Below, piece by piece: positions 10,921 to 44,598 of a DNA stretch of 64,000 nt. The DNA comes from Candidatus Pacearchaeota archaeon. GTDB taxonomy: Archaea; Nanobdellota; Nanobdellia; Pacearchaeales; UBA284. Under the pieces are notes generated by a model. That model saw only the letters and a program-made list of their open reading frames with translations. It made no database searches and was not told where the DNA came from. The stretch spans positions 3,587 to 67,586 of the forward strand of contig JAWANM010000001.1 of NCBI GenBank assembly GCA_038895375.1. Direction: 5' to 3'. A program made the position numbers and the translations under genes. Positions within the stretch are counted from its first letter, which is position 1, and every line of letters starts with the position of its first letter.

Positions 10921-13158
10921 ATGAAATTACTTAAAAAGATAGCACCTATTGCTGTCGGAGCAGTTTTAGGACTAGCAACTATGGGTAGCGCGATAGCAGC
11001 AGATCTAGGAACATGGAAAAACAACTTCCCAGCAGCAAACACGGTTGTTGTTGCTTACGATAGTGATGCTGCAGCCATCGCAGAAATTGCAAACTACCTA
11101 GGCCTAAGAGGCGGGACAACAATAACCGGTGAAAGCTGGGGATTTGAAAAATCAACAAACAAACTCAACTTAGGAGAAAACTTAAGTGAGATAAGACCTA
11201 CAATTTCAAAAGAACAACTGCCAACAATTCTTGCAGAAGGTACTTACTGGGACGAAGAAAATAATGAGCACAAGTATACGCAAAAAATAACAGTAGGCGA
11301 TCTCACATTAACGCACTTCCAGGATTATGACTACAAGGACAACGAACCTACACTCGGCTTTAAAATAACAGATACCAGCTCTATCTTGAATTACACCCTT
11401 ACATTCAGCGGAAGCGGACCTGAAATAGGAGACATGAATGGAACATCAATAGAAATGCTTGGTAGAGAGTTTTTCATCAGCAAAGCTGAGGCTGGAAAAA
11501 TAACACTATTAGAAACATCAACAAGAGCTACAATAGAAGAAGAGGAAACAGCTACTGTTGGAGGAAAAACAATAAAAATTAATTATTTCGTTGAAGATGG
11601 GAAGAAAGTATCTTTAATTGTTAATGGAGAGGAGACCAACCCTATAGAAGCAGGAAAAACATACAAGCTTCGTGACGGAACTGTTGTCGGAGTAAAAACA
11701 ATAATATTTGACAGAAGAGAAGGCCGTAAGAGTAAAGTTGTAGTAACAGTGGGAACAGGAAAAATAGAGCTTATCAATGATACAGAAGTAAAAATTAATG
11801 ATAAGACAGTATATGGTTTAAAATCATACATTGATGTACCCAGTAGCAATTTGAAATCGATAACTCTTGAATGGATAGCAGACGATGATTATTACATCGG
11901 GGCTGGTGACGAGCTTGTAATGCCTGGACTTAAGGCATTAAAGCTCATGATGACAGAAATGGTGTTCCCAGCAGGAGAAGACATAACAATAAAAGGAGAT
12001 GGAAGAAAAGCCAAGCTTGAGGTTCCGATAAAAGACGGAACAGCAAATATTGTTCTTTTAGAAGGTGATGGTACAAACTGGACAACAATCGGAGAAGAAG
12101 GTAGGGTATTAAAGACGACTCTTGGAAATGCGCTTATCGACCTAACTACAAGAGATAGGTTCTTCACAACATACATAAACGGTGAAGAAGGAGAATCTTA
12201 TTATTGGGAAGTGGAAAGCTTCGACACAGACAACAACAAAGTAACATTTAAAACATTAGTAGGAAGTAAAAGCTGCACTGTCGCAGAAGGTGATGATTGT
12301 GAAGTTGGCGAAGTTTCCTTCACAGTCACGGGCCTAAATGCAACTGCTAAAAAGGTGAACATAACCGCAGGTGAGTACGTCAATTTCCACACAATAGTGT
12401 CCAGCAAAGGAGCTCTTTTCTACCTTCCACAAACGGAAAATGGGAGTATATGGGGTTATCTAAATTCCTCAAACCCTACGGGATGGGTCTTAGGAATGTA
12501 CGAAGAGGACAAAGAAGGATACATTGGCTTCGGAAACTGGACAGCGTTTTTATTCGGATTTAATGACGATGGAAAAGCGACTGTTGCTGATGTAGATAGC
12601 GAGAAATGGGCTGGTGAAGGGATGCTAAAGAAAGGTGAAGACACTGAGATTGGTTATGTAGAATCGCCACTAGCGACAAAAGTTGTTTATGAAACTGGTG
12701 GAAGGCAAGATTATGCAATTGTAACATACTATGGCGAAGAGGTTTATGGAAATGTGTTCATTGCAGGAGCTGGTGCAGCAGCGGGTGGTGGAGAAGTTGC
12801 AATAACATACCCTGAGTTGACAGAAAGCATGAAAGCAACAAAGAACATCATAAGCATTGGTGGTTCTGGAGTCAACCCATTCAGCGCAGAGCTATTGTTC
12901 GGCTCACCTACGCTTGTTTATGGAAGCGACTCAAGATGGGTGAGCGCTACAGGCGTTGATGGTGTTGGCAAGGCGCTTGTTCAGCTATATCAAGGTACAT
13001 CAGCATGCCAGAAAGTTTGCTTGCTTGTAGCAGGATTCGAAGCAAGCGACACATTGAAAGCTGCAAGATTCTTAACAACAAAGGCTGATGAGTTGGCAGG
13101 AAAAACAAAAGCTGTGCTCGACACAACAGGAGACACTGCAAGCGTAATAACAACCTAA
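10921..13158 (+). CDS. S-layer / major cell-surface protein (secreted, 745 aa)
   Basis: Signal peptide MKLLKKIAPIAVGAVLGLATMGSAIAADLG. GGAGG SD at 10909-10913. GC content and codon usage differ from neighbours (highly expressed look). T/S/G-rich beta-type composition. T-rich terminator 13180-13230. All antisense ORFs inside are spurious. Confidence 0.6.
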   Translation: MKLLKKIAPIAVGAVLGLATMGSAIAADLGTWKNNFPAANTVVVAYDSDAAAIAEIANYLGLRGGTTITGESWGFEKSTNKLNLGENLSEIRPTISKEQLPTILAEGTYWDEENNEHKYTQKITVGDLTLTHFQDYDYKDNEPTLGFKITDTSSILNYTLTFSGSGPEIGDMNGTSIEMLGREFFISKAEAGKITLLETSTRATIEEEETATVGGKTIKINYFVEDGKKVSLIVNGEETNPIEAGKTYKLRDGTVVGVKTIIFDRREGRKSKVVVTVGTGKIELINDTEVKINDKTVYGLKSYIDVPSSNLKSITLEWIADDDYYIGAGDELVMPGLKALKLMMTEMVFPAGEDITIKGDGRKAKLEVPIKDGTANIVLLEGDGTNWTTIGEEGRVLKTTLGNALIDLTTRDRFFTTYINGEEGESYYWEVESFDTDNNKVTFKTLVGSKSCTVAEGDDCEVGEVSFTVTGLNATAKKVNITAGEYVNFHTIVSSKGALFYLPQTENGSIWGYLNSSNPTGWVLGMYEEDKEGYIGFGNWTAFLFGFNDDGKATVADVDSEKWAGEGMLKKGEDTEIGYVESPLATKVVYETGGRQDYAIVTYYGEEVYGNVFIAGAGAAAGGGEVAITYPELTESMKATKNIISIGGSGVNPFSAELLFGSPTLVYGSDSRWVSATGVDGVGKALVQLYQGTSACQKVCLLVAGFEASDTLKAARFLTTKADELAGKTKAVLDTTGDTASVITT

Positions 13159-14594: not shown

Positions 14595-14655
14595 GCATTT
14601 AAGCTTGAAAAACAAAACTAGAAAACTTTTAAACTCTTTTCTCTTGCTTTATTAT

Positions 14656-14754
14656 GCCGGGATGGCCCAACTGGTACGGCGCAGGCCTTGAGAGCCTGTT
14701 GGACGCAAGTCCTGTCAGGGTTCGAGAACAAGAATCGAAAATCCCTGTCCCGGC
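14656..14754 (+). tRNA. tRNA-Ser (anticodon TGA) with a 15-nt insertion (putative intron) in the T-loop
   Basis: Acceptor GCCGGGA/TCCCGGC. Anticodon stem CAGGC/GCCTG with loop CTTGAGA. Long variable arm GGACGCAAGTCC. T-stem CAGGG/CCCTG encloses 22 nt (TTCGAGAACAAGAATCGAAAAT) instead of 7. Confidence 0.6.
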
Positions 14755-14755
14755 G

Positions 14756-15352
14756 TTATTTTTCAGAAAAAATAGTGTATTTTGCAATGTAGTTCTTTTC
14801 TTTCTTTAAGATAACTTCAAGATTTAGATCTTTTTCTTTGTTTTTAACTTTGCCAGCAAAGCTAACTTTATTTACTTTTTTAAAAATAGGTAGAAGATGA
14901 ATCTCAAGAATGATGCTGGCAGAAGGAAAAACTTTAGAAAAAGAGACAACTTTAGAAGTGAGCTCTTTTTTATATTTAATTATACCGACTGGAAAATATT
15001 TTTCTTTAAATTCTATTAGATAAAGATTGTTTTTTGTCGTAACATAAGGAATTTTTTCCATGCTTTTATTAAAAATTTTAATACCATATTTATCGCTTAT
15101 CTCTTGCAACTCTCTAAAGGAAAAAGAACAAACATACACTTCTTTCCAGTTTTCTTTATTTTTTCCTTTTTCATTAACAAAATTTATCAATTTTTCATAA
15201 ACATCTTTCTCGAGATCGAAAAAAACATTAAGCTGAGAACAGCAATGCAAAATGAGATCTACATCTTGATCTCTAGAAAATTCTGAGAAGGCTTCGCTGA
15301 TTTTTCTATAAATATCTGCATATTCTGCTGAAATTATATTTGCGCTTATCAT
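14756..15352 (-). CDS. Hypothetical protein (198 aa)
   Basis: ORF only. No recognisable motif. Confidence 0.35.
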   Translation of the reverse strand: MISANIISAEYADIYRKISEAFSEFSRDQDVDLILHCCSQLNVFFDLEKDVYEKLINFVNEKGKNKENWKEVYVCSFSFRELQEISDKYGIKIFNKSMEKIPYVTTKNNLYLIEFKEKYFPVGIIKYKKELTSKVVSFSKVFPSASIILEIHLLPIFKKVNKVSFAGKVKNKEKDLNLEVILKKEKNYIAKYTIFSEK

Positions 15353-15442: not shown

Positions 15443-17104
15443 TTATCTTTTACCGAGTAGTTTTTGTTTTCTTCTTATGCGTGCAATCATAATAATTATG
15501 CCAAGCAAAGCAACAATTACGCATGCAACAATAACAACAAGCCATCTCCATAATTCTGCTTTACCAAACTTTTTCTCTAAGATACTGCATTCTTTTGTTT
15601 CCTCTGGTTTTCTTTCTGCTGTGCCGCAATTATTCAAATCGATGCATGTTCTTGTTTTTACACCATCTACGCAAGAGCTCCAAGCAGTGCAATTCCAATT
15701 TGGTTCGCATTTACTCGGCTCTGAAATTGCTCTTAGCATTAAATCGACTTTGTTGTTGCTTATGCTCAAAACAGTTATTGAAAAATCATTTATGTTGTTC
15801 GCGTTCAAATCAAATTCTTTTGTTTCATTGATGTAAATAGTAGCAACAATCGAGTTGATTTCCAGAGTTGTTGAATTGCTCGTTATGTTCTTTACGGTAA
15901 TTATATGACTTTCATTACCAAGAGTAAAGTTGATTTTCTCGTCTTTTGCAACATTGTTTATAGTTTTGTTTGTTCCTGTTATGTTGCCAACGTCGTGTAT
16001 TCGAGCGGGGTTGCATTCTTTAGTATTGACATTACAGCCATAAGTGCAATATTCTATTGTTCGCCATGCATTGTTGATGCATTTTTGTAAAGCATCTCCG
16101 GAACATCTTTTTGCATTTTCAGTACATACTGTACCGCTTTCGCCATTTTCGCTTGTAGAAGACTTTATAGTTATACTCCATTTTTCAGAGCTGTCCGAAT
16201 TGCCAGCATAATCATAACACCTAACCTGCCATTCATAAGTGCCTCTTTCGAGTTCTATATCTGAAAATTCTTGCTGTGTACCATTTTCTATGCTAGTATC
16301 TGTTTGTCTTAAGCTGCCATCTATATACAAAGAACAATTCTTAATGCCAAAATTATCTGTAACATTGTACTTGAAATCTATGGTTGTTGAAGTTGTATTA
16401 TAATTGTTTGTCGGCGACTTTAAATGCACTTCTGGCTTTGTTGTGTCTATTGTCAAAGTTCTGTTGCTCGAGAAGTTACAATTGCCAGCAGCATCACAAG
16501 CTTGACAAGCCCATAAATAGCGTGCGTTTGCGGCTAAGCTCTGTGCAAATGTTGTTGTATTGTTTGTTCCTGAAACATTGCTCGAGTTTTTTGCACCCCA
16601 GCCAAACCAATTGCCGTAAAGCGTTATGTTACTCAAATTGTAATTGTCTTGAGCTGTACAATTAAAAGTTATGTTTGTAGTTGAAAAATTGGCATAAGCG
16701 ACTGGCGCGTTTAACATTATATTTGGTGCTGTAGTATCGTTTACTTTGAGTTCTAATGCAATGTTCCAAGATCCTGTTGCATTAGTGATAGTTATTGTTA
16801 AATTATAATCTCCAGGCTCTGAAACTGTGACGTTAAACCAAAAATGTTCAATAGAGTTGTTCATAACAAGACCGTCTTTTTCCCAGCTTAACACGCTTGA
16901 GGTGTTAGAAAAATTTGCTTCAGCAACACTGCTACCATTGGAATCTGCAATAAATATAAAGCCATCAGGCAAAGTTATATTAACTTGAGTTATATTTGAT
17001 TCTTCTGTTTCGTAACTATTGTTTATTGAAATATTAATCAAAGATGAAACGTCTTCGTTGATTGAATTTTCTTGTAGCCAAGCAGAATATTCCGCAAAAG
17101 TCAT
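15443..17104 (-). CDS. Cell-surface protein with C-terminal TM anchor and N-glycosylation-sequon-rich Ig-like repeats; signal peptide out of frame (see finding)
   Basis: C-terminus WRWLVVIVACVIVALLGIIIMIARIRRKQK (TM plus basic tail). Shares a ~75-aa block with the giant protease (NCTAQDNYNLSNITLYGNW...WACQACDAAGNC). A 45-codon ORF starting at 17171 encodes a signal peptide in another frame. Confidence 0.6.
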   Translation of the reverse strand: MTFAEYSAWLQENSINEDVSSLINISINNSYETEESNITQVNITLPDGFIFIADSNGSSVAEANFSNTSSVLSWEKDGLVMNNSIEHFWFNVTVSEPGDYNLTITITNATGSWNIALELKVNDTTAPNIMLNAPVAYANFSTTNITFNCTAQDNYNLSNITLYGNWFGWGAKNSSNVSGTNNTTTFAQSLAANARYLWACQACDAAGNCNFSSNRTLTIDTTKPEVHLKSPTNNYNTTSTTIDFKYNVTDNFGIKNCSLYIDGSLRQTDTSIENGTQQEFSDIELERGTYEWQVRCYDYAGNSDSSEKWSITIKSSTSENGESGTVCTENAKRCSGDALQKCINNAWRTIEYCTYGCNVNTKECNPARIHDVGNITGTNKTINNVAKDEKINFTLGNESHIITVKNITSNSTTLEINSIVATIYINETKEFDLNANNINDFSITVLSISNNKVDLMLRAISEPSKCEPNWNCTAWSSCVDGVKTRTCIDLNNCGTAERKPEETKECSILEKKFGKAELWRWLVVIVACVIVALLGIIIMIARIRRKQKLLGKR

Positions 17105-17224: not shown

Positions 17225-20200
17225 TTATTTTCTTTTCTTTTTGAAAACTGCAAAGAAAATGGTAATAATTAAAGCCATCGCAACCAAAATTAAAACAATA
17301 TAAAGAGTTGGGAAAGAAACTTTTCTAGCTTCTTCTTGCTTTTCTTCTGCTTTGCCTTGAATTTTTTCTTCTCTAACTAGTGGCTCCGGCAGCTCCGGCA
17401 GTGTTATGTTTGTTATGTTTGTTTGATTTGTTGGGCCAATGTTTATAGTGCTAGCTCCGCCACCAGCGCCACCACCAGCACCGCCGCCAGCGCCGCCACC
17501 GCTGCTAGGAGAGTAATACATAGGAGCAAAGATGCTTGAATTAGCTATACTAACGTTTCCAGAATAAACATAATTGTGTTCTGTGTCGACTCCGCTGCTT
17601 GCAAGCTCGCTCCAAGAGCCATTATAAGCAAACATTTTCAAACTAGTTTCATCACTGATTTCTCTTTCATTATAGCTCATATTAAGATAGATCCACGAGC
17701 CTACTGATGCTGCAATTACATTGACAAATTTACCAATGTTTCTATAATTTCTCGGGTCTGGTGCTGGTGCTATTGTCTTGTTCAAAGCAATATTTTCTGA
17801 TATAAAGTTTATTGTTTCTTCCAAGCCGATATCAAAATAAGAGACTATATTGTTTGTTGAGTTTAGTGAAACAAATGCAAAAAATTGATTATTTTTCGAC
17901 TCGTCATCAATTAAAATGTTGTTATTGCTAGAAGAGTTAATAAATAAACCAATCTGATTATTGTTTGTTTCAGTTGAAATAATATAATTATCGCGACTAA
18001 ATCCTAAAAGAATACCAAATTCATTTGAATTGGCCTTTGTATTAAAAATACTGTTTTTTGAAGAAGAAAGAACTCCAATGCCTACATAATTATCATTAAA
18101 AGAAGAATTTGTTATGTTGTTGTGGTTAGAATTAAAAAGAGCCAAACCAAAATAATTACCGGAAGAATTGATTAGATCAAAAGTTGTATTTTCAGTTGCT
18201 AAAACAAGCAAGCCATTATTATCAAGACTCTCAGATCCAGCAATGGTTATGTTCTTAAGTGAAGAATTATCGGCATTGCATAAAATTAATTCTGAGAGAG
18301 TTTCATTTTCTAAGGTTACGCTAGAATTATAGAATTTTATTTCTCTGTCGCCAGAACCCGTGTTATTTTCTATAATATTATTACAATAAGTGTCAATATT
18401 AGCATAACCAATCAAATCGAACAAATTATTTTCTCTTATTATATTATCGATGATAACATTATTTTGACCATCTTCAAGATAAAGGCCATAATCATTATAT
18501 TCAAAAATGCTATCATTAATATTGTTGCCATTAGAATCTTCTAAATAAATTCCATAATAATTTCCAGAAGAATTAATCAAAGAAAAATTAGAATCATTTG
18601 TATAATAGACAAATATGCCATTGTTTTGCAAGTAATCTGAGCCGATAACAGTTACATTATAAATTGAAGAGCTATCGGCATCACACAAAATAAGTTCAGA
18701 AAAAATTTCGTCGCTTAAGTTAACACTTTCATTATAGAAGGCAATAGCTCTATCGCCAGAACCAGTAACATTTTCAATAAAGATACGATCACAACTAGAA
18801 TCTGATAAGCTATTAAACCCTACATCTTGCTGTAAGTTATCTTGAACATTGCAATTGCTTATGTTTATACTTAGCTCGCCGCTGACAGGAAGATCATAAA
18901 TATAAATGCCTGTACTAAAATTAGAAATTGTCAAATTAAAGATAGTTATATTTCCACCTTGAGCAGTGTTTATTCCGTAACCTGTGCTATTGCCAGTGAT
19001 GCTATAGCCGGCGCCATTAATTGTTATGTTATTTGAACCAATTGTGAAGCAAGTTCCATTGCTCTGTAAGTTTCCATTTAAAGTGCATGATTCATAAATT
19101 CTATCGCCACATGTATAAATCATGCCGCTTTCTGCAACACAGCCATAAGGAATTGTTAAAGTTCTATTGTTTGAAGCAAAAACACAATTTCCAGCAGCAT
19201 CACAAGCTTGACAATTCCAAACATAGGTTCCTGAATCAAGAATTTTTTCAAAAATTACTGGTATTGCATTTTCTGGCGAGCTATTGGTTTCGTTAGCGTG
19301 CCAGCCACCAGACCAATTGCCATAAAGAGTTACATTTGTTAAATTTACATTATCAGAAGCAGTACAATTAAATATAATATTTCTTGAGTTTGAAGTAAAG
19401 TTATCTTGTGGTTCGTTTAAAATAACTGTAGGTTCTCCAGATATTACGATTAAAGTTCTTGTTGTTGAAATGTTGATTATTCCTATATTTTCTTCCCAAC
19501 ACTGAATTTTCCAGTTGTAAATTCCTTCTTTACTAAGATTGTATGTTATTGTAGTAAATGTATTATTTTCTGCAATAGTTGTATTAACAATGGTGTTGTT
19601 TATTATTAAATCGCATGTCGCATTTGTTGCATTTTTATTTATCGTTGTAAAATTAAAAGTTATTAAAGAATTGTTTGTTATATAACCATTCTCTGGCGAG
19701 TTTAACAAGATGCTCGGCTTAAAGTTCGGCGCATTAACCACATGAGGATACTCGACTTCTACACCAACGCCGCTACAATTAAACCTTATATAAATATAAC
19801 CATTATCGCCCCATCCTGCTCCCCAGCTGTTTTTGACAATCCAATAACTAGTATTTATGTTTCCTGTATCATTATAACCCACAAGCAAGACGCCATGATT
19901 TAAATCAGACCAATTTTGTGGTATATTGCATGTACTATCATTGAACAAACCACCAGAATAGTTGAACCACGCACTGGTAGCTTTAACACCTATAATAATT
20001 GGACCATTATCTATCAATAATTGTTTGAGTTCTTCATTTGATAAAGGGACGGTAACATTTGGATAATTACTTATGTTGACGTTTGTTGTAAAATTAGTTA
20101 TGTTCCACAATCTGGTCGCATAATCTGAACATCTGTCTGAGCATATAGCGTTAGAACAGTTTCCTCCAGTATGGTAAACACATGATGTAGAGCAATTAGA

Positions 20201-21061
20201 ATTGGAGCAATTGCAATTCGTACCATCAACGTAATTAAAACAATTTTCGTCACTTATACCATCCCTCATAATAAAATCAAGGGCAACATCCATCCAACCA
20301 CCACAACAATTCTCATACGATCCATAATAAGGATCTGTGTGGCAGTTAGAAACAAGGTACTCTTCTGCAAGGTCAGGATTTAATCTTGAATTGTTCTGAT
20401 TAATCTCATACTTGGCCTCGAGAGAGGCTATAGTAGAAAAAGCCCAGCAAGAACCGCAAGAACCTTGATTCTTAACAGAAGTAAGCCATCCATGAATTTC
20501 GTCAAAAAATGTAAAATTATATTTGCTATAGTTTGTTCCATTCGGAGGATTGCGCCAGTCCCAATAAGGAAAATCAGAAGCATTATAAGTTTTAACTGGA
20601 ATTTCTTTGATTAATAATTTTGTATCCTCTCTAGATTCTTCAAAAAAATTCTCTTTAAAACTTTCTCTTGCTCTATTCTCTGCATAAATACATTTAGAAG
20701 ATTTTGTCAAGTCTAATAGCTCATTAACGGGAATTTCTTTCATAATTTTTTTACCTGTTTCGTTAGATGGAACAATACAAAAAGCCATGCCATTTTTGCT
20801 TTTAAGCTCATAGCCATGCTTAGAACAGTAAGAAAATTCCTTGCCGCATTCGCCTCTCAAAAAAGACCATTCTTCGCATCTTTCTTTATTTGGCATCACA
20901 CAAATGCCTTTCTGGCCTAAAGCAGTTTCTACAATTTTATATTCATAACCCAATTCGCTACAATAAACTGCCGCAGGGTTTGGTAATGCAGAAACATAAC
21001 TTGTAAGAAAAATTAAAGCGAATATCACAAAGATAATCAAAAAAAATCTTGAGATTCTCAT
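17225..21061 (-). CDS. Giant membrane-anchored surface protein: signal peptide, DUF333-like modules, papain-family (C1) cysteine peptidase domain, Ig-like/beta-helix repeats, (GGGA)n linker, C-terminal TM
   Basis: NPAAVYCSELGY..GICVMPNKERCEEWSFLRGECG (DUF333). QGSCGSCWAFS (C1 catalytic Cys), LNHGVLLVGY (His), IVKNSWG (Asn). Right-handed beta-helix-like repeats (NITIFNLTISNFSTGIYIYD...). GGGAGGGAGGGAGGGAS. C-terminus LYIVLILVAMALIITIFFAVFKKKRK. Confidence 0.75.
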   Translation of the reverse strand: MRISRFFLIIFVIFALIFLTSYVSALPNPAAVYCSELGYEYKIVETALGQKGICVMPNKERCEEWSFLRGECGKEFSYCSKHGYELKSKNGMAFCIVPSNETGKKIMKEIPVNELLDLTKSSKCIYAENRARESFKENFFEESREDTKLLIKEIPVKTYNASDFPYWDWRNPPNGTNYSKYNFTFFDEIHGWLTSVKNQGSCGSCWAFSTIASLEAKYEINQNNSRLNPDLAEEYLVSNCHTDPYYGSYENCCGGWMDVALDFIMRDGISDENCFNYVDGTNCNCSNSNCSTSCVYHTGGNCSNAICSDRCSDYATRLWNITNFTTNVNISNYPNVTVPLSNEELKQLLIDNGPIIIGVKATSAWFNYSGGLFNDSTCNIPQNWSDLNHGVLLVGYNDTGNINTSYWIVKNSWGAGWGDNGYIYIRFNCSGVGVEVEYPHVVNAPNFKPSILLNSPENGYITNNSLITFNFTTINKNATNATCDLIINNTIVNTTIAENNTFTTITYNLSKEGIYNWKIQCWEENIGIINISTTRTLIVISGEPTVILNEPQDNFTSNSRNIIFNCTASDNVNLTNVTLYGNWSGGWHANETNSSPENAIPVIFEKILDSGTYVWNCQACDAAGNCVFASNNRTLTIPYGCVAESGMIYTCGDRIYESCTLNGNLQSNGTCFTIGSNNITINGAGYSITGNSTGYGINTAQGGNITIFNLTISNFSTGIYIYDLPVSGELSINISNCNVQDNLQQDVGFNSLSDSSCDRIFIENVTGSGDRAIAFYNESVNLSDEIFSELILCDADSSSIYNVTVIGSDYLQNNGIFVYYTNDSNFSLINSSGNYYGIYLEDSNGNNINDSIFEYNDYGLYLEDGQNNVIIDNIIRENNLFDLIGYANIDTYCNNIIENNTGSGDREIKFYNSSVTLENETLSELILCNADNSSLKNITIAGSESLDNNGLLVLATENTTFDLINSSGNYFGLALFNSNHNNITNSSFNDNYVGIGVLSSSKNSIFNTKANSNEFGILLGFSRDNYIISTETNNNQIGLFINSSSNNNILIDDESKNNQFFAFVSLNSTNNIVSYFDIGLEETINFISENIALNKTIAPAPDPRNYRNIGKFVNVIAASVGSWIYLNMSYNEREISDETSLKMFAYNGSWSELASSGVDTEHNYVYSGNVSIANSSIFAPMYYSPSSGGGAGGGAGGGAGGGASTINIGPTNQTNITNITLPELPEPLVREEKIQGKAEEKQEEARKVSFPTLYIVLILVAMALIITIFFAVFKKKRK

Positions 21062-21414: not shown

Positions 21415-21740
21415 GCAGTTGAGAAGTTGGCTCTCCGGAAGGAGGAAGGTCCGCTCACCCCATCAAATTTTTGATGGAAGTGGCCGGCTTTCGCAAGAAA
21501 GCTTGCCGCGAGGCAAAGCTCTGCCACAGAAACGACACAGCTCTTGCTGAGAAATGAAGCTTGCGCAGATCTTTGAAGCAAGAGATTTGATGAAACGCCT
21601 CGAAAGAGGGACGCAAAAAATTTTTGCGTCGGCAACTCGGCCGGTGCAACTCGCATTCGCGAGGCTTAGTAGGATGCCAACATGGTCTGTTTGAAGCCAA
21701 AACTTCAAAGACCAACAAAAAGCGGCCTATTCTCAACTGC
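21415..21740 (+). ncRNA. rnpB: Structured GC-rich ncRNA, most likely RNase P RNA
   Basis: 340-nt GC-rich island with no coherent ORF. Termini form a perfect 10-bp helix (GCAGTTGAGA 21415-21424 / TCTCAACTGC 21731-21740). P3-like hairpin CUCC-GGAA-GGAG followed by GAAGGUCCGCUC (like CR-I GGAAAGUCCGGGCUC). ACAAAAAGCGGCCUAU near the 3' end (like CR-V ACAGAANCCGGCUUA) can pair with GGUCCGC (P4). Followed by hairpin GCTCGG-CTATC-CCGAGC plus TTTT. Confidence 0.6.
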
Positions 21741-21744
21741 ACTG

Positions 21745-21768
21745 CTCGGCTATCCCGAGCAGCTTTTC
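21745..21768 (+). terminator. Hairpin (GCTCGG/CCGAGC) plus T4 immediately after the ncRNA
   Basis: ctgctcggctatcccgagcagcttttcg. Confidence 0.4.
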
Positions 21769-21810
21769 GAAAACAAAAATTTTTTATATTTTGAAAGCTG
21801 AAACTTAAAC

Positions 21811-21966
21811 ATGGCAGAAGAAATTACAATACCTGCATCAAGCGGCGGATTGATAAGATATGGTGAAGAGTATGAAACAAAATTCAAGTTGAAACCTGCA
21901 CATGTAATAGCTCTTATCATAGCGATCATAGCTTTTGAACTTCTTTTAAGAATCTTCAAAGTATAA
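21811..21966 (+). CDS. secG: Preprotein translocase subunit Sec61-beta (SecG), 51 aa
   Basis: Manual translation: MAEEITIPASSGGLIRYGEEYETKFKLKPAHVIALIIAIIAFELLLRIFKV. The SSGGLIRY motif plus C-terminal TM is diagnostic. Below the ORF-track size cutoff. Confidence 0.75.
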   Translation: MAEEITIPASSGGLIRYGEEYETKFKLKPAHVIALIIAIIAFELLLRIFKV

Positions 21967-21992
21967 TTGATGATAAAAATTTTATATCTCAA

Positions 21993-23846: not shown

Positions 23847-23918
23847 GGTGGCTGTAGTATAATGGCAATACGCACGGCTGTGGCCCGTGAGACCTGGGTT
23901 CGATTCCCAGCTGCCACC
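23847..23918 (+). tRNA. tRNA-His (anticodon GTG) with encoded G-1
   Basis: G-1 then acceptor GTGGCTG/CTGCCAC (one U-U mismatch). D-stem GTAT/ATAC. Anticodon stem CACGG/CCGTG, loop CTGTGGC. T-arm CTGGG-TTCGATT-CCCAG. Discriminator C pairs with G-1. Confidence 0.8.
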
Positions 23919-23931
23919 CTTCCAAAATAAA

Positions 23932-25080
23932 ATGATGCCTGTGAAAGGTTTTCGCGACTTTACAGAAGAAGAAGCGTTAAAAAGAGAAAAAATTAAAGAA
24001 ATCATAATAAAAAAATTTAAAACTTATGGTTTTGAGCCTGCAGAAACGCCTATAATCGAATATGAAGATTTTGCAAAAAAAGAACAATTCGAGGAAACTA
24101 TAAGCGAAATTTTCAAGTTGAAAGACAGAGGCAAAAGAAATCTTGCATTGCGCTATGAGCTTACATTTCAACTTAAAAGAATTGCAAAAAACAAAAAGCT
24201 CCCGTATAGAAGATATCAAATAGGAGAGGTTTTTCGTGACGAGCCTGTTTCTGCTAACAGATTCCGACAATTCACTCAATGCGATATTGACGTTGTTGGC
24301 TCGACAATAAGAGACGAAGCTGAAATTTTAAAAATTTTTTCTGAAATTTTGGAGGAATTAAAAATCGATGCAACAATTGTAATCAACAATAGAAAATTGT
24401 TGGACGAAATTTTGGAAGAGCAAGGAATTGAAAAGCAAAACAGAGAAAAAGTGATCAAAGAGCTCGACAAACTCAATAAGCTACCAGAATCGGAAGTTAA
24501 AGAGAATTTAAAAAAATTCAATGCAGAAAAGCTAATCGAGATAGTAAAAAAACCAAAAAAATTTTTCGAAAAATATTCTGCCTTCAAAGAAATAAAAGAG
24601 TTACTAAAGTATTGCAAAATTTTTAAAGTCAAGGTGAAATTTTTGCCTTCTTTAGCGAGAGGTTTGGCTTACTACAACGGAAATATTTTTGAAATTTTCA
24701 CCAAAAAAATGAAAGAAAGCATTGCGGGCGGAGGTTCTTATCTGATTGAAAAAATTCAAAGTACAGGCATTTCTTTTGGTTTAGAAAGATTGAGCTCGTT
24801 GGCAAAAGTTCAAGTAGAGGGTGTAAAATGTTTGATTATTTCTATAGGGCAAGAAAAAGAAGCCATAGAGCTTGCACAAAAATTAAGAAAAAAGCAAATT
24901 TCTTGTTTTGTTATGGACAAAATTTATAAAGCTGTAGAATACGCTAATGCAAAAAAAATCCCTTATGTAATTTTCGTAGGAAAAAAAGAGCTCGAAAAAG
25001 AAAAGTTCAAACTGCGAGACATGAAAACCGGAGAAGAAAAACTTCTTACACTAAACAAACTGCTTGAATTTCTTTCTTGA
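23932..25080 (+). CDS. hisS: Histidyl-tRNA synthetase
   Basis: MMPVKGFRDF..YGFEPAETPIIEYEDF and the motif-2 region RYQIGEVFRDEPVSANRFRQFTQCDIDVVG. True start is at 23932; the ORF-track start 23887 lies inside tRNA-His. Confidence 0.85.
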   Translation: MMPVKGFRDFTEEEALKREKIKEIIIKKFKTYGFEPAETPIIEYEDFAKKEQFEETISEIFKLKDRGKRNLALRYELTFQLKRIAKNKKLPYRRYQIGEVFRDEPVSANRFRQFTQCDIDVVGSTIRDEAEILKIFSEILEELKIDATIVINNRKLLDEILEEQGIEKQNREKVIKELDKLNKLPESEVKENLKKFNAEKLIEIVKKPKKFFEKYSAFKEIKELLKYCKIFKVKVKFLPSLARGLAYYNGNIFEIFTKKMKESIAGGGSYLIEKIQSTGISFGLERLSSLAKVQVEGVKCLIISIGQEKEAIELAQKLRKKQISCFVMDKIYKAVEYANAKKIPYVIFVGKKELEKEKFKLRDMKTGEEKLLTLNKLLEFLS

Positions 25081-37063: not shown

Positions 37064-38542
37064 TTGTTGGCATTAAAATTAAAAATGAAAAGTCCGTATG
37101 TAATGCTTTATGGCTTCAATGTAGATGTTCTACATTTAAAGTACAGATTAAAAAAAGATTCTCTTCTTAAAAACAGTAAACAACTTAATTTGATTATCAA
37201 CAAAGTTTCTCCTGCAGTTATTGCTACAGCTTGCGCAGGCATAAGCCATCAGGAAAAAAGTTTTTCTTGGCTTAGAAAAAAATATAGAAATCTTGATAAG
37301 TTGATCGGCTTGGATAAAAAGCTTGTTGAGATGGGGCATTCCTCTATAGTCGAACACATGTTTTTTAATTTTGATGTTGTCTTGAGCAGGCTTGCTGTGG
37401 AGTTCTTGGAAAGCCATAGATTGGCAAGCTACACCGAAAAATCACAGAGATTTACCGAAGTTGATTACAATGCTTTTTATTTGCCATCTGAACATCAAGA
37501 TTTTGTTTCTCTTTTCAAAAAGCAAATTGAGCTATACAAAAAAGCTTTAGACTTGTCGAGAAAGCAACTAAAAGAAAAATTTGGAGAAAATTGGAAAAAA
37601 TACGATAATAAGGCCAAAGAAGACTCAAGATTTGTTTTGCCTCTGGCAGTTTTAGCTCCTTTAAATTTTAGCGTGAATGGACGTGAATTAGAATATATCA
37701 TTCAAAAGGCAAATTCTCACTCTTTACCAGAAATAAAAAAATTTGGTGAATTGCTAATTAAGGAATTGAATAGCAAAGTTCCTTGGGCCATGCACTTAAT
37801 CAAGCATACAGAAAAAGATGTTTATTATGAAAAAAATAAACAACTGGAAGAAGTTGTAAAGAGCTTGGCCTTGTATCAAAATTGTCAACAAAATACTTCT
37901 ATTGAAGTAGAAAAAGACGCCGACGACAAAATAATTGCTGCTCTTATTTTTGAAAATGCTCAGATCTCGTATGAAAAAGCTCTTGATTTTGTAAAAAAAC
38001 AAGATCAAAAGCTAAAATTTGAAATTGTTAGAAAAGCCTTAAAAAACATGGAAATGTATCATAGACCTCCGAGAGCTTTTGAAATTCCTTATGTAACTGT
38101 ATCTACTGCAATATCTGCTTCTTGTTTTGCCCAACTAAAAAGACATAGAATGCTTACGCTTTTGGTACAGCCCTACGATCCTAGCTTGGGATACACTATT
38201 CCGGAATCTATACATGAAATCGGTCTTGCAAAGGAGTATCTCGAATTAATGGAGCAATCCTCGGAATTGCTTTTCAAGCTTAGAAAGCAAGAGGATCCAG
38301 AAGCGGAATATGTAGTTACAAATGGCCACAAAAGAAGGGTGATTATTAAAATGAATTTTAGAGAGCTCTATCACTTTTCTAGATTAAGACAAGACAAGCA
38401 TGCTCAATGGGAAATTAGGAACCTAGCAAACGAAATTGTTGATCGAGTTAAAAAAGATATGCCTATAACGACAATTCTTCTTGGCGGCAAACACGAATTC
38501 CAAGACATCAAAAAATTGTTTGAAAAATATGAACAAATCTAA
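37064..38542 (+). CDS. thyX: Flavin-dependent thymidylate synthase ThyX-like, double-length
   Basis: N-half HSSIVEHMFFNFDVVLSRLAVEFLESHRLASYTEKSQRF is the ThyX signature (SHR..S....SQRF). C-half has a degenerate second copy (LKRHRMLTLL). 492 aa. Confidence 0.5.
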   Translation: MLALKLKMKSPYVMLYGFNVDVLHLKYRLKKDSLLKNSKQLNLIINKVSPAVIATACAGISHQEKSFSWLRKKYRNLDKLIGLDKKLVEMGHSSIVEHMFFNFDVVLSRLAVEFLESHRLASYTEKSQRFTEVDYNAFYLPSEHQDFVSLFKKQIELYKKALDLSRKQLKEKFGENWKKYDNKAKEDSRFVLPLAVLAPLNFSVNGRELEYIIQKANSHSLPEIKKFGELLIKELNSKVPWAMHLIKHTEKDVYYEKNKQLEEVVKSLALYQNCQQNTSIEVEKDADDKIIAALIFENAQISYEKALDFVKKQDQKLKFEIVRKALKNMEMYHRPPRAFEIPYVTVSTAISASCFAQLKRHRMLTLLVQPYDPSLGYTIPESIHEIGLAKEYLELMEQSSELLFKLRKQEDPEAEYVVTNGHKRRVIIKMNFRELYHFSRLRQDKHAQWEIRNLANEIVDRVKKDMPITTILLGGKHEFQDIKKLFEKYEQI

Positions 38543-40279: not shown

Positions 40280-40362
40280 GCCGCGATGGCCCAACTGGTA
40301 CGGCGCACGCTTGGAGAGCGTGTTTCCGAAAGGATTTCCAGGTTCGAATCCTGGTCGCGGCG
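40280..40362 (+). tRNA. tRNA-Ser (anticodon GGA), intron-less
   Basis: Acceptor GCCGCGA/TCGCGGC. Anticodon stem CACGC/GCGTG, loop TTGGAGA. Variable arm TCCGAAAGGA. T-arm CCAGG-TTCGAAT-CCTGG. Confidence 0.8.
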
Positions 40363-44494: not shown

Positions 44495-44598
44495 TGGGGC
44501 TGCCCGGATTTTCATTTGGAATTTTGAACCGGGGTCTCGAGTGTTCTTGGATTTTTCTCCCAAGACTCGGGTACTAAACCAAGCTATACTACAGCCCC
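44495..44598 (-). tRNA. tRNA-Pro (anticodon TGG) with two introns: ~15 nt in the anticodon loop and ~14 nt in the T-loop
   Basis: Minus strand: acceptor GGGGCTG/CAGCCCC. D-stem GTAT/GTAC. Anticodon stem CGAGT ... ACTCG with loop CTTGGGA followed by insertion GAAAAATCCAAGAAC (contains UCCAAG complementary to the anticodon loop). T-stem CCCGG/CCGGG encloses 21 nt TTCAAAATTCCAAATGAAAAT. 104 nt total, 75 nt after removal of both inserts. Confidence 0.6.

Follow-up and report, generated by a model that had tools for sequence, protein, structure and literature searches.

The transfer RNA (tRNA) gene for tRNA-Ser(UGA) in the 64-kb stretch of archaeal DNA analyzed here (the window) carries a 15-nucleotide (nt) insertion in its T-loop, and we consider it very likely that this insertion is an archaeal intron of the bulge-helix-bulge (BHB) type, located at position 59/60 and spliced by the endonuclease EndA. 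The insert is read as an intron because it is absent in syntenic orthologues, because its length varies at a fixed site, because exon and intron form a helix, and because its removal yields a normal tRNA; an earlier note on this DNA had also proposed an intron, and these observations bear the proposal out. The gene, at 14656 to 14755 on the plus strand, is 100 nt long with its discriminator G (14755), and no CCA is encoded. Its architecture is that of a class II tRNA, with the acceptor stem GCCGGGA/TCCCGGC, a 3-bp D-stem, the anticodon arm CAGGC-CTTGAGA-GCCTG (loop CTTGAGA at 14687 to 14693), and the long variable arm GGAC-GCAA-GTCC. The T-stem, made of CAGGG (14716 to 14720) and CCCTG (14743 to 14747), encloses 22 nt (TTCGAGAACAAGAATCGAAAAT, 14721 to 14742) in place of the usual 7. 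The gene is neither split nor permuted, being contiguous and colinear. Its features are listed below; L001 and L003 are loci with orthologues of the gene.

14627..14633 (+): TATA-box-like TTTTAAA, 23 to 29 nt upstream of the tRNA-Ser 5' end
14656..14755 (+): tRNA-Ser(UGA), from Rfam, ARAGORN after in silico splicing, and cloverleaf pairing
14689..14691 (+): anticodon TGA, from the local Rfam match and ARAGORN
14716..14720 (+): T-stem 5' strand CAGGG, outer helix h of the splicing motif
14721..14724 (+): exon nucleotides 54 to 57, TTCG, 5' strand of the central 4-bp helix H
14725..14727 (+): 5' bulge, A58, G59, and intron nucleotide 1 (A); predicted 5' splice site 14726/14727
14727..14741 (+): putative 15-nt intron AACAAGAATCGAAAA at 59/60, absent in L001:4952-5036 and L003
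14736..14739 (+): intron CGAA, strand H', pairing with TTCG 54 to 57 in the fold
14740..14742 (+): 3' bulge, A, A, and T60; predicted 3' splice site 14741/14742
14743..14754 (+): T-stem 3' strand CCCTG, then acceptor 3' strand TCCCGGC
14756..14763 (+): T-rich trailer TTATTTTT, a likely transcription stop

Standard searches did not report this gene. ARAGORN did not call it on the window. Rfam also passed over it, both at gathering thresholds and in an E-value scan of the whole window, because the speed filters of these Rfam scans drop the gene. A local Rfam scan, on the other hand, matched it to the tRNA family RF00005 with 38.3 bits (gathering score, 29; E = 5e-7), and in that alignment the T-loop had 17 nt versus the 2 expected by the model, an excess of 15 nt. 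When 14727 to 14741 were removed in silico, ARAGORN in linear mode called tRNA-Ser(tga), with a spliced product of 85 nt. We further scanned the window for an acceptor stem with an adjoining T-stem and a loop starting with TTC, oversized loops being allowed; this structural scan recovered the known tRNAs, tRNA-Ser(UGA), and one more gene, tRNA-Pro. Thus, two of the seven tRNA genes in the window have T-loop inserts, and both were missed by ARAGORN and by Rfam with default filters. A G+C-island analysis of the window revealed no further hidden structured RNA genes. Several statements of the earlier note hold in the light of these results: the coordinates 14656 to 14754 and the 22-nt T-loop within CAGGG/CCCTG agree with the sequence and the local Rfam scan, tRNA-Ser(GGA) (40280 to 40362) is indeed uninterrupted, and a tRNA-Pro gene (44495 to 44598, minus strand) does share the T-loop insertion design, with a 21-nt T-loop. 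The comparison of tRNA-Ser(UGA) orthologues that it had proposed as a check likewise turned out as expected of an intron, with the insert absent in two loci, 116 nt long in a third, and replaced by an intron at 37/38 in others. The orthologues, found in loci that include metagenome-assembled genomes (MAGs), are as follows.

L001:4952-5036, MAG SKYB115: uninterrupted; first 45 nt identical to the window; T-loop TTCGAGT
L003, metagenome contig: uninterrupted tRNA-Ser(UGA); T-loop TTCGAGT
L002:9913-10110 (+), MAG SZTDM-2 bin 215 (GCA_038894195.1, JAWAPZ010000001.1): 123-nt T-loop starting with TTCGAA and ending with CGAAAAT; implied intron, 116 nt
L004-L007 (L004:6604-6731), more distant relative: normal T-loop TTCGAAT; 47-nt intron at 37/38

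Gene order is kept in the window, L001, and L002, where an S-layer (surface-layer) gene, a 206-aa gene, and a 199-aa gene precede tRNA-Ser in that order and the opposite strand bears a 553-aa gene. The L001 alignment permits a single gap placement, TTCGAG/15 nt/T, which sets the insertion between tRNA positions 59 and 60, and L003 agrees. As both intron-less orthologues have the loop UUCGAGU, the junction is TTCGAG/AACAAGAATCGAAAA/T and the mature loop UUCGAGU. The L002 insert has the same site and boundaries as that of the window, including the UUCG:CGAA helix and the AA/U bulge (slashes mark predicted cuts), and its mature T-loop would be UUCGAAU, like that of L004. The L002 intron holds three perfect 35-nt tandem repeats (AATAAGGAACACATTTCCTTATCAACCTTTGGAAG), each an 8-bp hairpin, and the 35-nt unit occurs nowhere else in the window and the related loci searched. 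The array implies a recent tandem expansion inside the intron. ARAGORN, the local Rfam scan, and the initial structural scan all missed the L002 gene, and ARAGORN also misses the L004 gene with its 47-nt intron at 37/38. The site at which the tRNA-Ser(UGA) orthologue is interrupted therefore depends on the lineage, being 59/60 in some and 37/38 in others. A metagenome scan with the conserved 5' half of tRNA-Ser found a single locus, L003, while a scan of viral contigs gave no match.

The second tRNA gene with a T-loop insert, tRNA-Pro(UGG), was missed by ARAGORN and by default Rfam, and it has two inserts.

44495..44598 (-): tRNA-Pro(UGG) with two introns; local Rfam scan, 40.4 bits; 21-nt T-loop
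44544..44558 (-): 15-nt intron AGAAAAATCCAAGAA at the canonical position 37/38, CTTGGG/intron/C
44509..44522 (-): 14-nt T-loop intron ATTCCAAATGAAAA at 59/60, TTCAAA/intron/T

The 37/38 intron forms a 3-4-3 BHB motif, with a CUUG:CAAG helix, the bulges GG/A and AA/C, and a 2-bp inner helix. With both inserts removed, ARAGORN calls tRNA-Pro(tgg); with the T-loop insert alone removed, it puts the anticodon intron in the wrong place and reports tRNA-Ser(tga) instead. Pro orthologues were located downstream of the L11 gene, and the identity of each L11 protein to that of the window is given in parentheses.

L012/L013 (L11, 98%): both Pro inserts; T-loop insert identical to that of the window
L014 (L11, 82%): 28-nt intron at 37/38 only; T-loop TTCAAAT
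L015, MAG of L001 (L11, 76%): intron-less; loops CTTGGGC and TTCAAAT
L016/L017, MAG of L002 (L11, 73%): 47-nt intron at 37/38; in the T-loop, a 41-nt insert whose boundaries, UUCA...UGAA-AA/U, are those of the window insert
L018 (L11, 71%): intron-less; loops CTTGGGC and TTCAAAT

The anticodon loop CTTGGGC of the intron-less genes in L015 and L018 fixes the Pro 37/38 junction. T-loop introns thus occur in both Ser and Pro genes in the window organism and in bin 215 and in neither gene in SKYB115. The Pro T-loop insert is present in independent Logan and NCBI assemblies. The L11, tRNA-Pro, and L37ae genes are contiguous in the window and in the other relatives, but in bin 215 a gene of the PD-(D/E)XK family and an open reading frame (ORF) of 149 aa (L016:2590-3729, minus strand) are inserted between them.

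One rule describes all nine intron instances, four at 59/60 and five at 37/38: the first 4 loop nucleotides pair by Watson-Crick pairing with the 4 intron nucleotides that precede a 3-nt bulge. If each bulge is cut behind its second nucleotide, the joined exons carry exactly the loops of the intron-less orthologues, namely, CUUGGGC, UUCAAAU, and UUCGAGU. The bulge is AA/U in all four T-loop instances, and pair 57:H' covaries between the T-loop introns, being G:C in Ser and A:U in Pro. By sequence the junction is unique in two cases, Ser 59/60 and Pro 37/38. Judging from geometry, 59/60 would be the T-arm counterpart of 37/38, each lying between the sixth and seventh nucleotides of a 7-nt loop on a 5-bp stem. 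The design exceeds what chance would give. We defined the full motif as a GC-rich 5-bp stem whose loop starts with TTCR and in which a complementary tetranucleotide lies 3 nt ahead of the 3' stem strand; with both strands of the window searched, it has exactly two occurrences, in tRNA-Ser and tRNA-Pro. In 98 kb of related loci, short-loop matches to the motif were confined to the Ser and Pro genes. Random inserts satisfied the Watson-Crick helix rule in 0.3 to 0.6% of trials, and in 0.04 to 0.08% when the AA dinucleotide was required.

The predicted folds of the precursors agree with this layout. Minimum-free-energy (MFE) and centroid folds of the full tRNA-Ser and tRNA-Pro precursors are cloverleaves whose T-stem is stacked on a 4- to 5-bp exon-intron helix. 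In this helix, T-loop nucleotides 54 to 57 (58) pair with the insert toward its 3' end; the 3' strand bears the 3-nt bulge AAU, and the terminal loop is 9 to 10 nt long. In the MFE fold of tRNA-Ser, UUCGA pairs with UCGAA around a 9-nt loop, as had been predicted from the sequence. In BHB terms, the T-stem is the outer helix h, UUCG and CGAA are strands H and H' of the central helix, and A-A/U60 is the 3' bulge, while the 5' side, A58-G59/A, is unpaired and merges into the loop with at most one closing pair. A 4-bp exon-intron helix with bulges of about 3 nt at the predicted splice sites is common to all nine instances, and excision restores a canonical tRNA for Ser(tga) and Pro(tgg), as called by ARAGORN and with the loops of the intron-less orthologues. 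On the other hand, a strict hBHBh' motif, which takes an inner helix h' with 2 bp or more to close the 5' bulge, was not found at the T-loop sites: an adjacent h' could have 1 bp in Ser and 2 bp in the T-loop intron of the window Pro gene, and L002 and L016 offer no such pair (0 bp). By these models, the T-loop inserts are a relaxed hBH or bulge-helix-loop (BHL) form of the archaeal BHB motif and not strict hBHBh'.

Several lines of evidence indicate that the gene is maintained. In an alignment of five spliced Ser orthologues, 118 of 118 stem cells were paired (100%) and 12 of 24 pairs showed compensatory changes; none of 500 shuffles reached the observed values, and slid controls fell to 29 to 47% paired. 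Several of the compensatory changes, including ones in the variable arm and the T-stem, are specific to the window copy, which argues that this copy is under selection. Moreover, an element of the TTTTAAA/TTTTTAA type lies at the same upstream distance in all seven tRNA genes and the RNase P RNA gene of the window, and also upstream of the Ser orthologues in L001 to L003; by the archaeal promoter consensus, it is probably a TATA box.

The alternatives were weighed against this evidence. The closest to the preferred reading keeps the splicing by EndA and moves the junction to 58/59 (removing GAACAAGAATCGAAA) or 57/58 (removing AGAACAAGAATCGAA), so that the mature T-loop is UUCGAAU, the product that the earlier note had expected. 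UUCGAAU is the commonest T-loop among the other tRNAs of the window and is found in the L002 and L004 Ser orthologues, and with the 5-bp MFE helix UUCGA:UCGAA, the unpaired stretch on the 5' side would move by one nucleotide. Nonetheless, we regard this junction as unlikely: the two closest orthologues, whose first 45 nt are identical to those of the window, have UUCGAGU, the L001 alignment accommodates only a gap at 59/60, and the AA/U bulge with 4-bp spacing puts the 5' cut after G59 by the same rule that gives the unique Pro 37/38 junction. The orthologues and the 3-4-3 geometry thus replace UUCGAAU with UUCGAGU. That the gene is instead a disabled pseudogene, its insert a lesion and its function supplied by another tRNA-Ser(UGA) gene, appears very unlikely. 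Standard finders do reject the gene, and a second copy could exist elsewhere in the genome; however, its stems are perfect, its variable arm and T-stem bear window-specific compensatory changes, its promoter element is conserved, and it holds the syntenic place of a functional orthologue. Furthermore, the precise helix-plus-bulge boundary recurs in the independently diverged 116-nt L002 insert and in tRNA-Pro, whose T-loop insert is identical in a second assembly with 98% L11 identity.

We give hardly any credence to the idea that the insert is retained in the mature tRNA as an enlarged T-arm or extra hairpin, a lineage-specific structural feature. The insert does form a stable extension of the T-stem in the fold, but its length differs from one orthologue to another (0, 14, 15, 41, and 116 nt), and the interiors of the inserts are unrelated, the boundary being all that is conserved. 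Nucleotides U54 to G57 must be free for the universal T-loop fold and its contacts with G18 and G19; the helix sequesters them, and closely related genomes function without the insert. An origin as a mobile-element or integrase attachment (att) scar, a self-splicing intron, or an assembly artifact is also exceedingly improbable. Integration commonly targets tRNA genes in their 3' half, and TCGA flanks the Ser insert on both sides, a palindrome that could be mistaken for a direct repeat. In tRNA-Pro, however, the flanking TTCA and TGAA are complementary without repeating each other directly, which speaks against a target-site duplication, and no integrase gene is adjacent. At 14 to 15 nt, the insert falls far short of a group I or II intron, whose catalytic core takes hundreds of nucleotides, and no intron family appeared in the local Rfam scans. 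As for an assembly artifact, the occurrence of the Pro insert in both the Logan and the NCBI assemblies speaks against it.

Altogether, an EndA-spliced intron at 59/60 remains the preferred explanation. EndA recognizes the BHB motif independently of its place in the tRNA and cuts both bulges, leaving a 2',3'-cyclic phosphate and a 5'-OH, and RtcB ligates the exons. In the tRNA-Ser precursor, U54 to G57 would pair with CGAA of the intron in a 4-bp helix on the T-stem. EndA would then cut after the second nucleotide of each bulge, at 14726/14727 and 14741/14742, and an RtcB-type ligase would join the exons, ...GGGUUCGAG to UCCCUG..., into an 85-nt class II tRNA with the T-loop UUCGAGU. With U54 to G57 sequestered in the precursor, the T-loop/D-loop elbow and the T-loop modifications would become possible only after splicing. 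Some points tell against this explanation. We infer cleavage, ligation, and the enzymes responsible from sequence and modeled folds, and no EndA, RtcB, or other splicing enzyme was found among 37 ORFs of the window by Pfam, a lenient pass included. The inner helix h' has just 0 to 2 bp, and the 5' "bulge" is part of the hairpin loop in the MFE fold; EndAs of narrow specificity may cleave such a relaxed motif inefficiently. In addition, the junction of the Pro T-loop insert is not fixable from sequence alone, given its runs of A, and a second, uninterrupted tRNA-Ser(UGA) gene could lie outside the 64-kb window.

A sequence likeness between the two intron positions is also worth recording. Nucleotides 14729 to 14734 of the Ser T-loop intron are CAAGAA, a hexamer that also forms the 3' end (H' plus bulge) of the Pro 37/38 intron and that is complementary to CUUG of the Ser anticodon loop. 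The chance of such a match is about 0.004 by base composition, a figure to be read with the fact that the match was noticed post hoc. By this hexamer the 59/60 intron may derive from a 37/38 intron, or the match may be a coincidence.

The position itself has precedents. Noncanonical BHB introns of archaea are known at positions that include 53/54, 56/57, and 59/60 (PMC4090602). In ARMAN-2 (Candidatus Micrarchaeum acidiphilum), pre-tRNA-Cys(GCA) contains a 13-nt hBH intron at 59/60 that was cleaved in vitro by the organism's own epsilon2 EndA, and in the ARMAN-2 tRNA-Pro(GGG), T-loop introns occupy positions 53/54 and 59/60 (Fujishima et al. 2011, PMC3239211). The ARMAN-2 tRNA-Cys intron resembles those of the window in position, in its very short length (13 versus 14 to 15 nt), in a relaxed motif with one good bulge and a helix, and in its DPANN host; like the window organism, ARMAN-2 also has a tRNA-Pro with T-loop introns. 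It differs in lineage (Micrarchaeota versus Pacearchaeota/Nanobdellota), in the tRNAs concerned (Cys versus Ser-UGA and Pro-UGG), and in its epsilon2 EndA, whose cleavage was shown biochemically, the window introns being predicted from sequence. Compared to the canonical 37/38 hBHBh' intron (3-nt bulge, 4-bp helix, 3-nt bulge), the window 59/60 introns have an identical local geometry, and the Pro 37/38 intron of the same genome is of the same length, 15 nt, as the Ser 59/60 intron; they differ in lying in the T-arm and in the near absence of h' (0 to 2 bp). The Ser and Pro T-loop introns therefore belong to the documented 59/60 kind and are not a new intron class. The earlier note had spoken of a lineage-specific intron class and had taken the two tRNAs as independent support for it; 59/60 is already a listed archaeal position with the ARMAN-2 precedent, and both inserts follow the general endonuclease rule, as does the Pro 37/38 intron.

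Other systems are less similar. In Thermoproteales and other Crenarchaeota, as here, a tRNA can have more than one intron, near relatives differ in the presence of introns, and positions 53/54, 56/57, and 59/60 are used (Sugahara 2007/2008; Fujishima 2010; PMC4090602). Those hosts have a heterotetrameric (alpha-beta)2 EndA with a crenarchaeal loop, and their intron families are similar in sequence, suggesting transposition; the window introns, in contrast, are similar only in what pairing needs and in the one, possibly coincidental, CAAGAA hexamer. The tRNA introns of the Guillardia theta nucleomorph and the Cyanidioschyzon merolae nucleus are likewise very short inserts in the D- or T-arm that are removed posttranscriptionally (PMC4090602, PMC3728597), but their hosts and machinery are eukaryotic. 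With regard to the enzyme, cleavage of relaxed motifs was initially ascribed to (alpha-beta)2 and epsilon2 EndAs only, and alpha4 EndAs with an "L3" loop in several DPANN lineages were later tied to more tRNA disruption (PMC5829648, PMC6379350). The survey of EndAs and disrupted tRNAs by Kaneta et al. (2018) reports EndA in DPANN archaea, one Pacearchaeota genome included (PMC5829648), and remarks that undetected disrupted tRNAs remain (PMC5829648, PMC6379350).

The value of these introns is practical more than conceptual, in that standard tRNA finders miss such genes and the missed genes inflate the apparent "loss" of tRNAs in reduced DPANN genomes; even sensitive local scans fail to reveal the L002 tRNA-Ser with its 116-nt T-loop intron. 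A 2026 preprint on 54 complete Pacearchaeales genomes reported that tRNA-Val escaped detection in 15 of them and tRNA-Trp in 9, with split genes suspected (10.64898/2026.05.13.725050), and long or noncanonical introns like that of L002 are an alternative to split genes for such undetected tRNAs. The Ser orthologue series (none, 15, and 116 nt at 59/60; 47 nt at 37/38) amounts to a natural experiment on intron gain, loss, and expansion; it documents what appears in these sequences as rapid intron turnover and expansion, and it supplies test substrates for the little-studied EndA enzymes of Nanobdellota. Taking these threads together, we tentatively raise a broader possibility, one that we hold to be more doubtful than probable: introns at 59/60 may turn over rapidly in Pacearchaeales, where they would be gained, lost, and lengthened (to as much as 116 nt, through tandem duplication) at a T-arm site that mimics 37/38 in geometry, possibly seeded by transposed anticodon-loop introns and cut by a DPANN EndA of the alpha4 type long assumed to be strict, and such long or multiple introns, rather than split genes, may explain many of the "missing" Val and Trp tRNAs.

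At L008:1790-1895 (also in L009), a convergent intergenic gap lies at the expected syntenic site of tRNA-Ser, and no tRNA was found there by any method. On the minus strand of the gap, 11 nt (TGGCGTCGGCG) match the Ser tRNA at its 3' end, and a hairpin, ACTTC-CTTGAAT-GGAGT, resembles an anticodon arm. The gap could hold a relic or a rearranged or heavily disrupted gene.

By its matches, the host is a DPANN archaeon, Candidatus Pacearchaeota, of the GTDB phylum Nanobdellota. The L11 protein of the window is 100% identical to an NCBI protein labeled "MAG: Candidatus Pacearchaeota archaeon," an S-layer-like neighbor protein is 51 to 57% identical to proteins of two Candidatus Pacearchaeota MAGs, and Rfam finds an archaeal RNase P RNA at 21415 to 21740 on the plus strand (97.8 bits); the window has about 34% G+C. 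The RNase P RNA has several lineage-specific insertions relative to the Rfam model, and two spurious ORFs on the minus strand, 21455 to 21742 and 21750 to 21992, overlap or adjoin its gene. The tRNA-Ser gene lies inside a cluster of surface-protein genes (10921 to 13158, plus strand; 15443 to 17104 and 17225 to 21061, minus strand), which encode a 745-aa S-layer-like protein whose homologues bear S_layer_C, a 553-aa Ig-domain protein, and a 1,278-aa papain-family protease with beta-helix repeats. Other genes of the window include a ribosomal-protein operon and genes for the exosome, the proteasome, histidyl- and prolyl-tRNA synthetases (HisRS and ProRS), diphthamide synthesis, and ThyX. tRNA-His(GTG) (23848 to 23919, plus strand) is immediately 5' of the histidyl-tRNA synthetase gene (23887 to 25080, plus strand), so that the cognate synthetase adjoins its tRNA, and the longest-ORF start of the synthetase gene overlaps tRNA-His(GTG). 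Finally, the 492-aa ThyX protein (37064 to 38542, plus strand) shows two Thy1 domain stretches, which suggests a tandem-duplicated or fused flavin-dependent thymidylate synthase.

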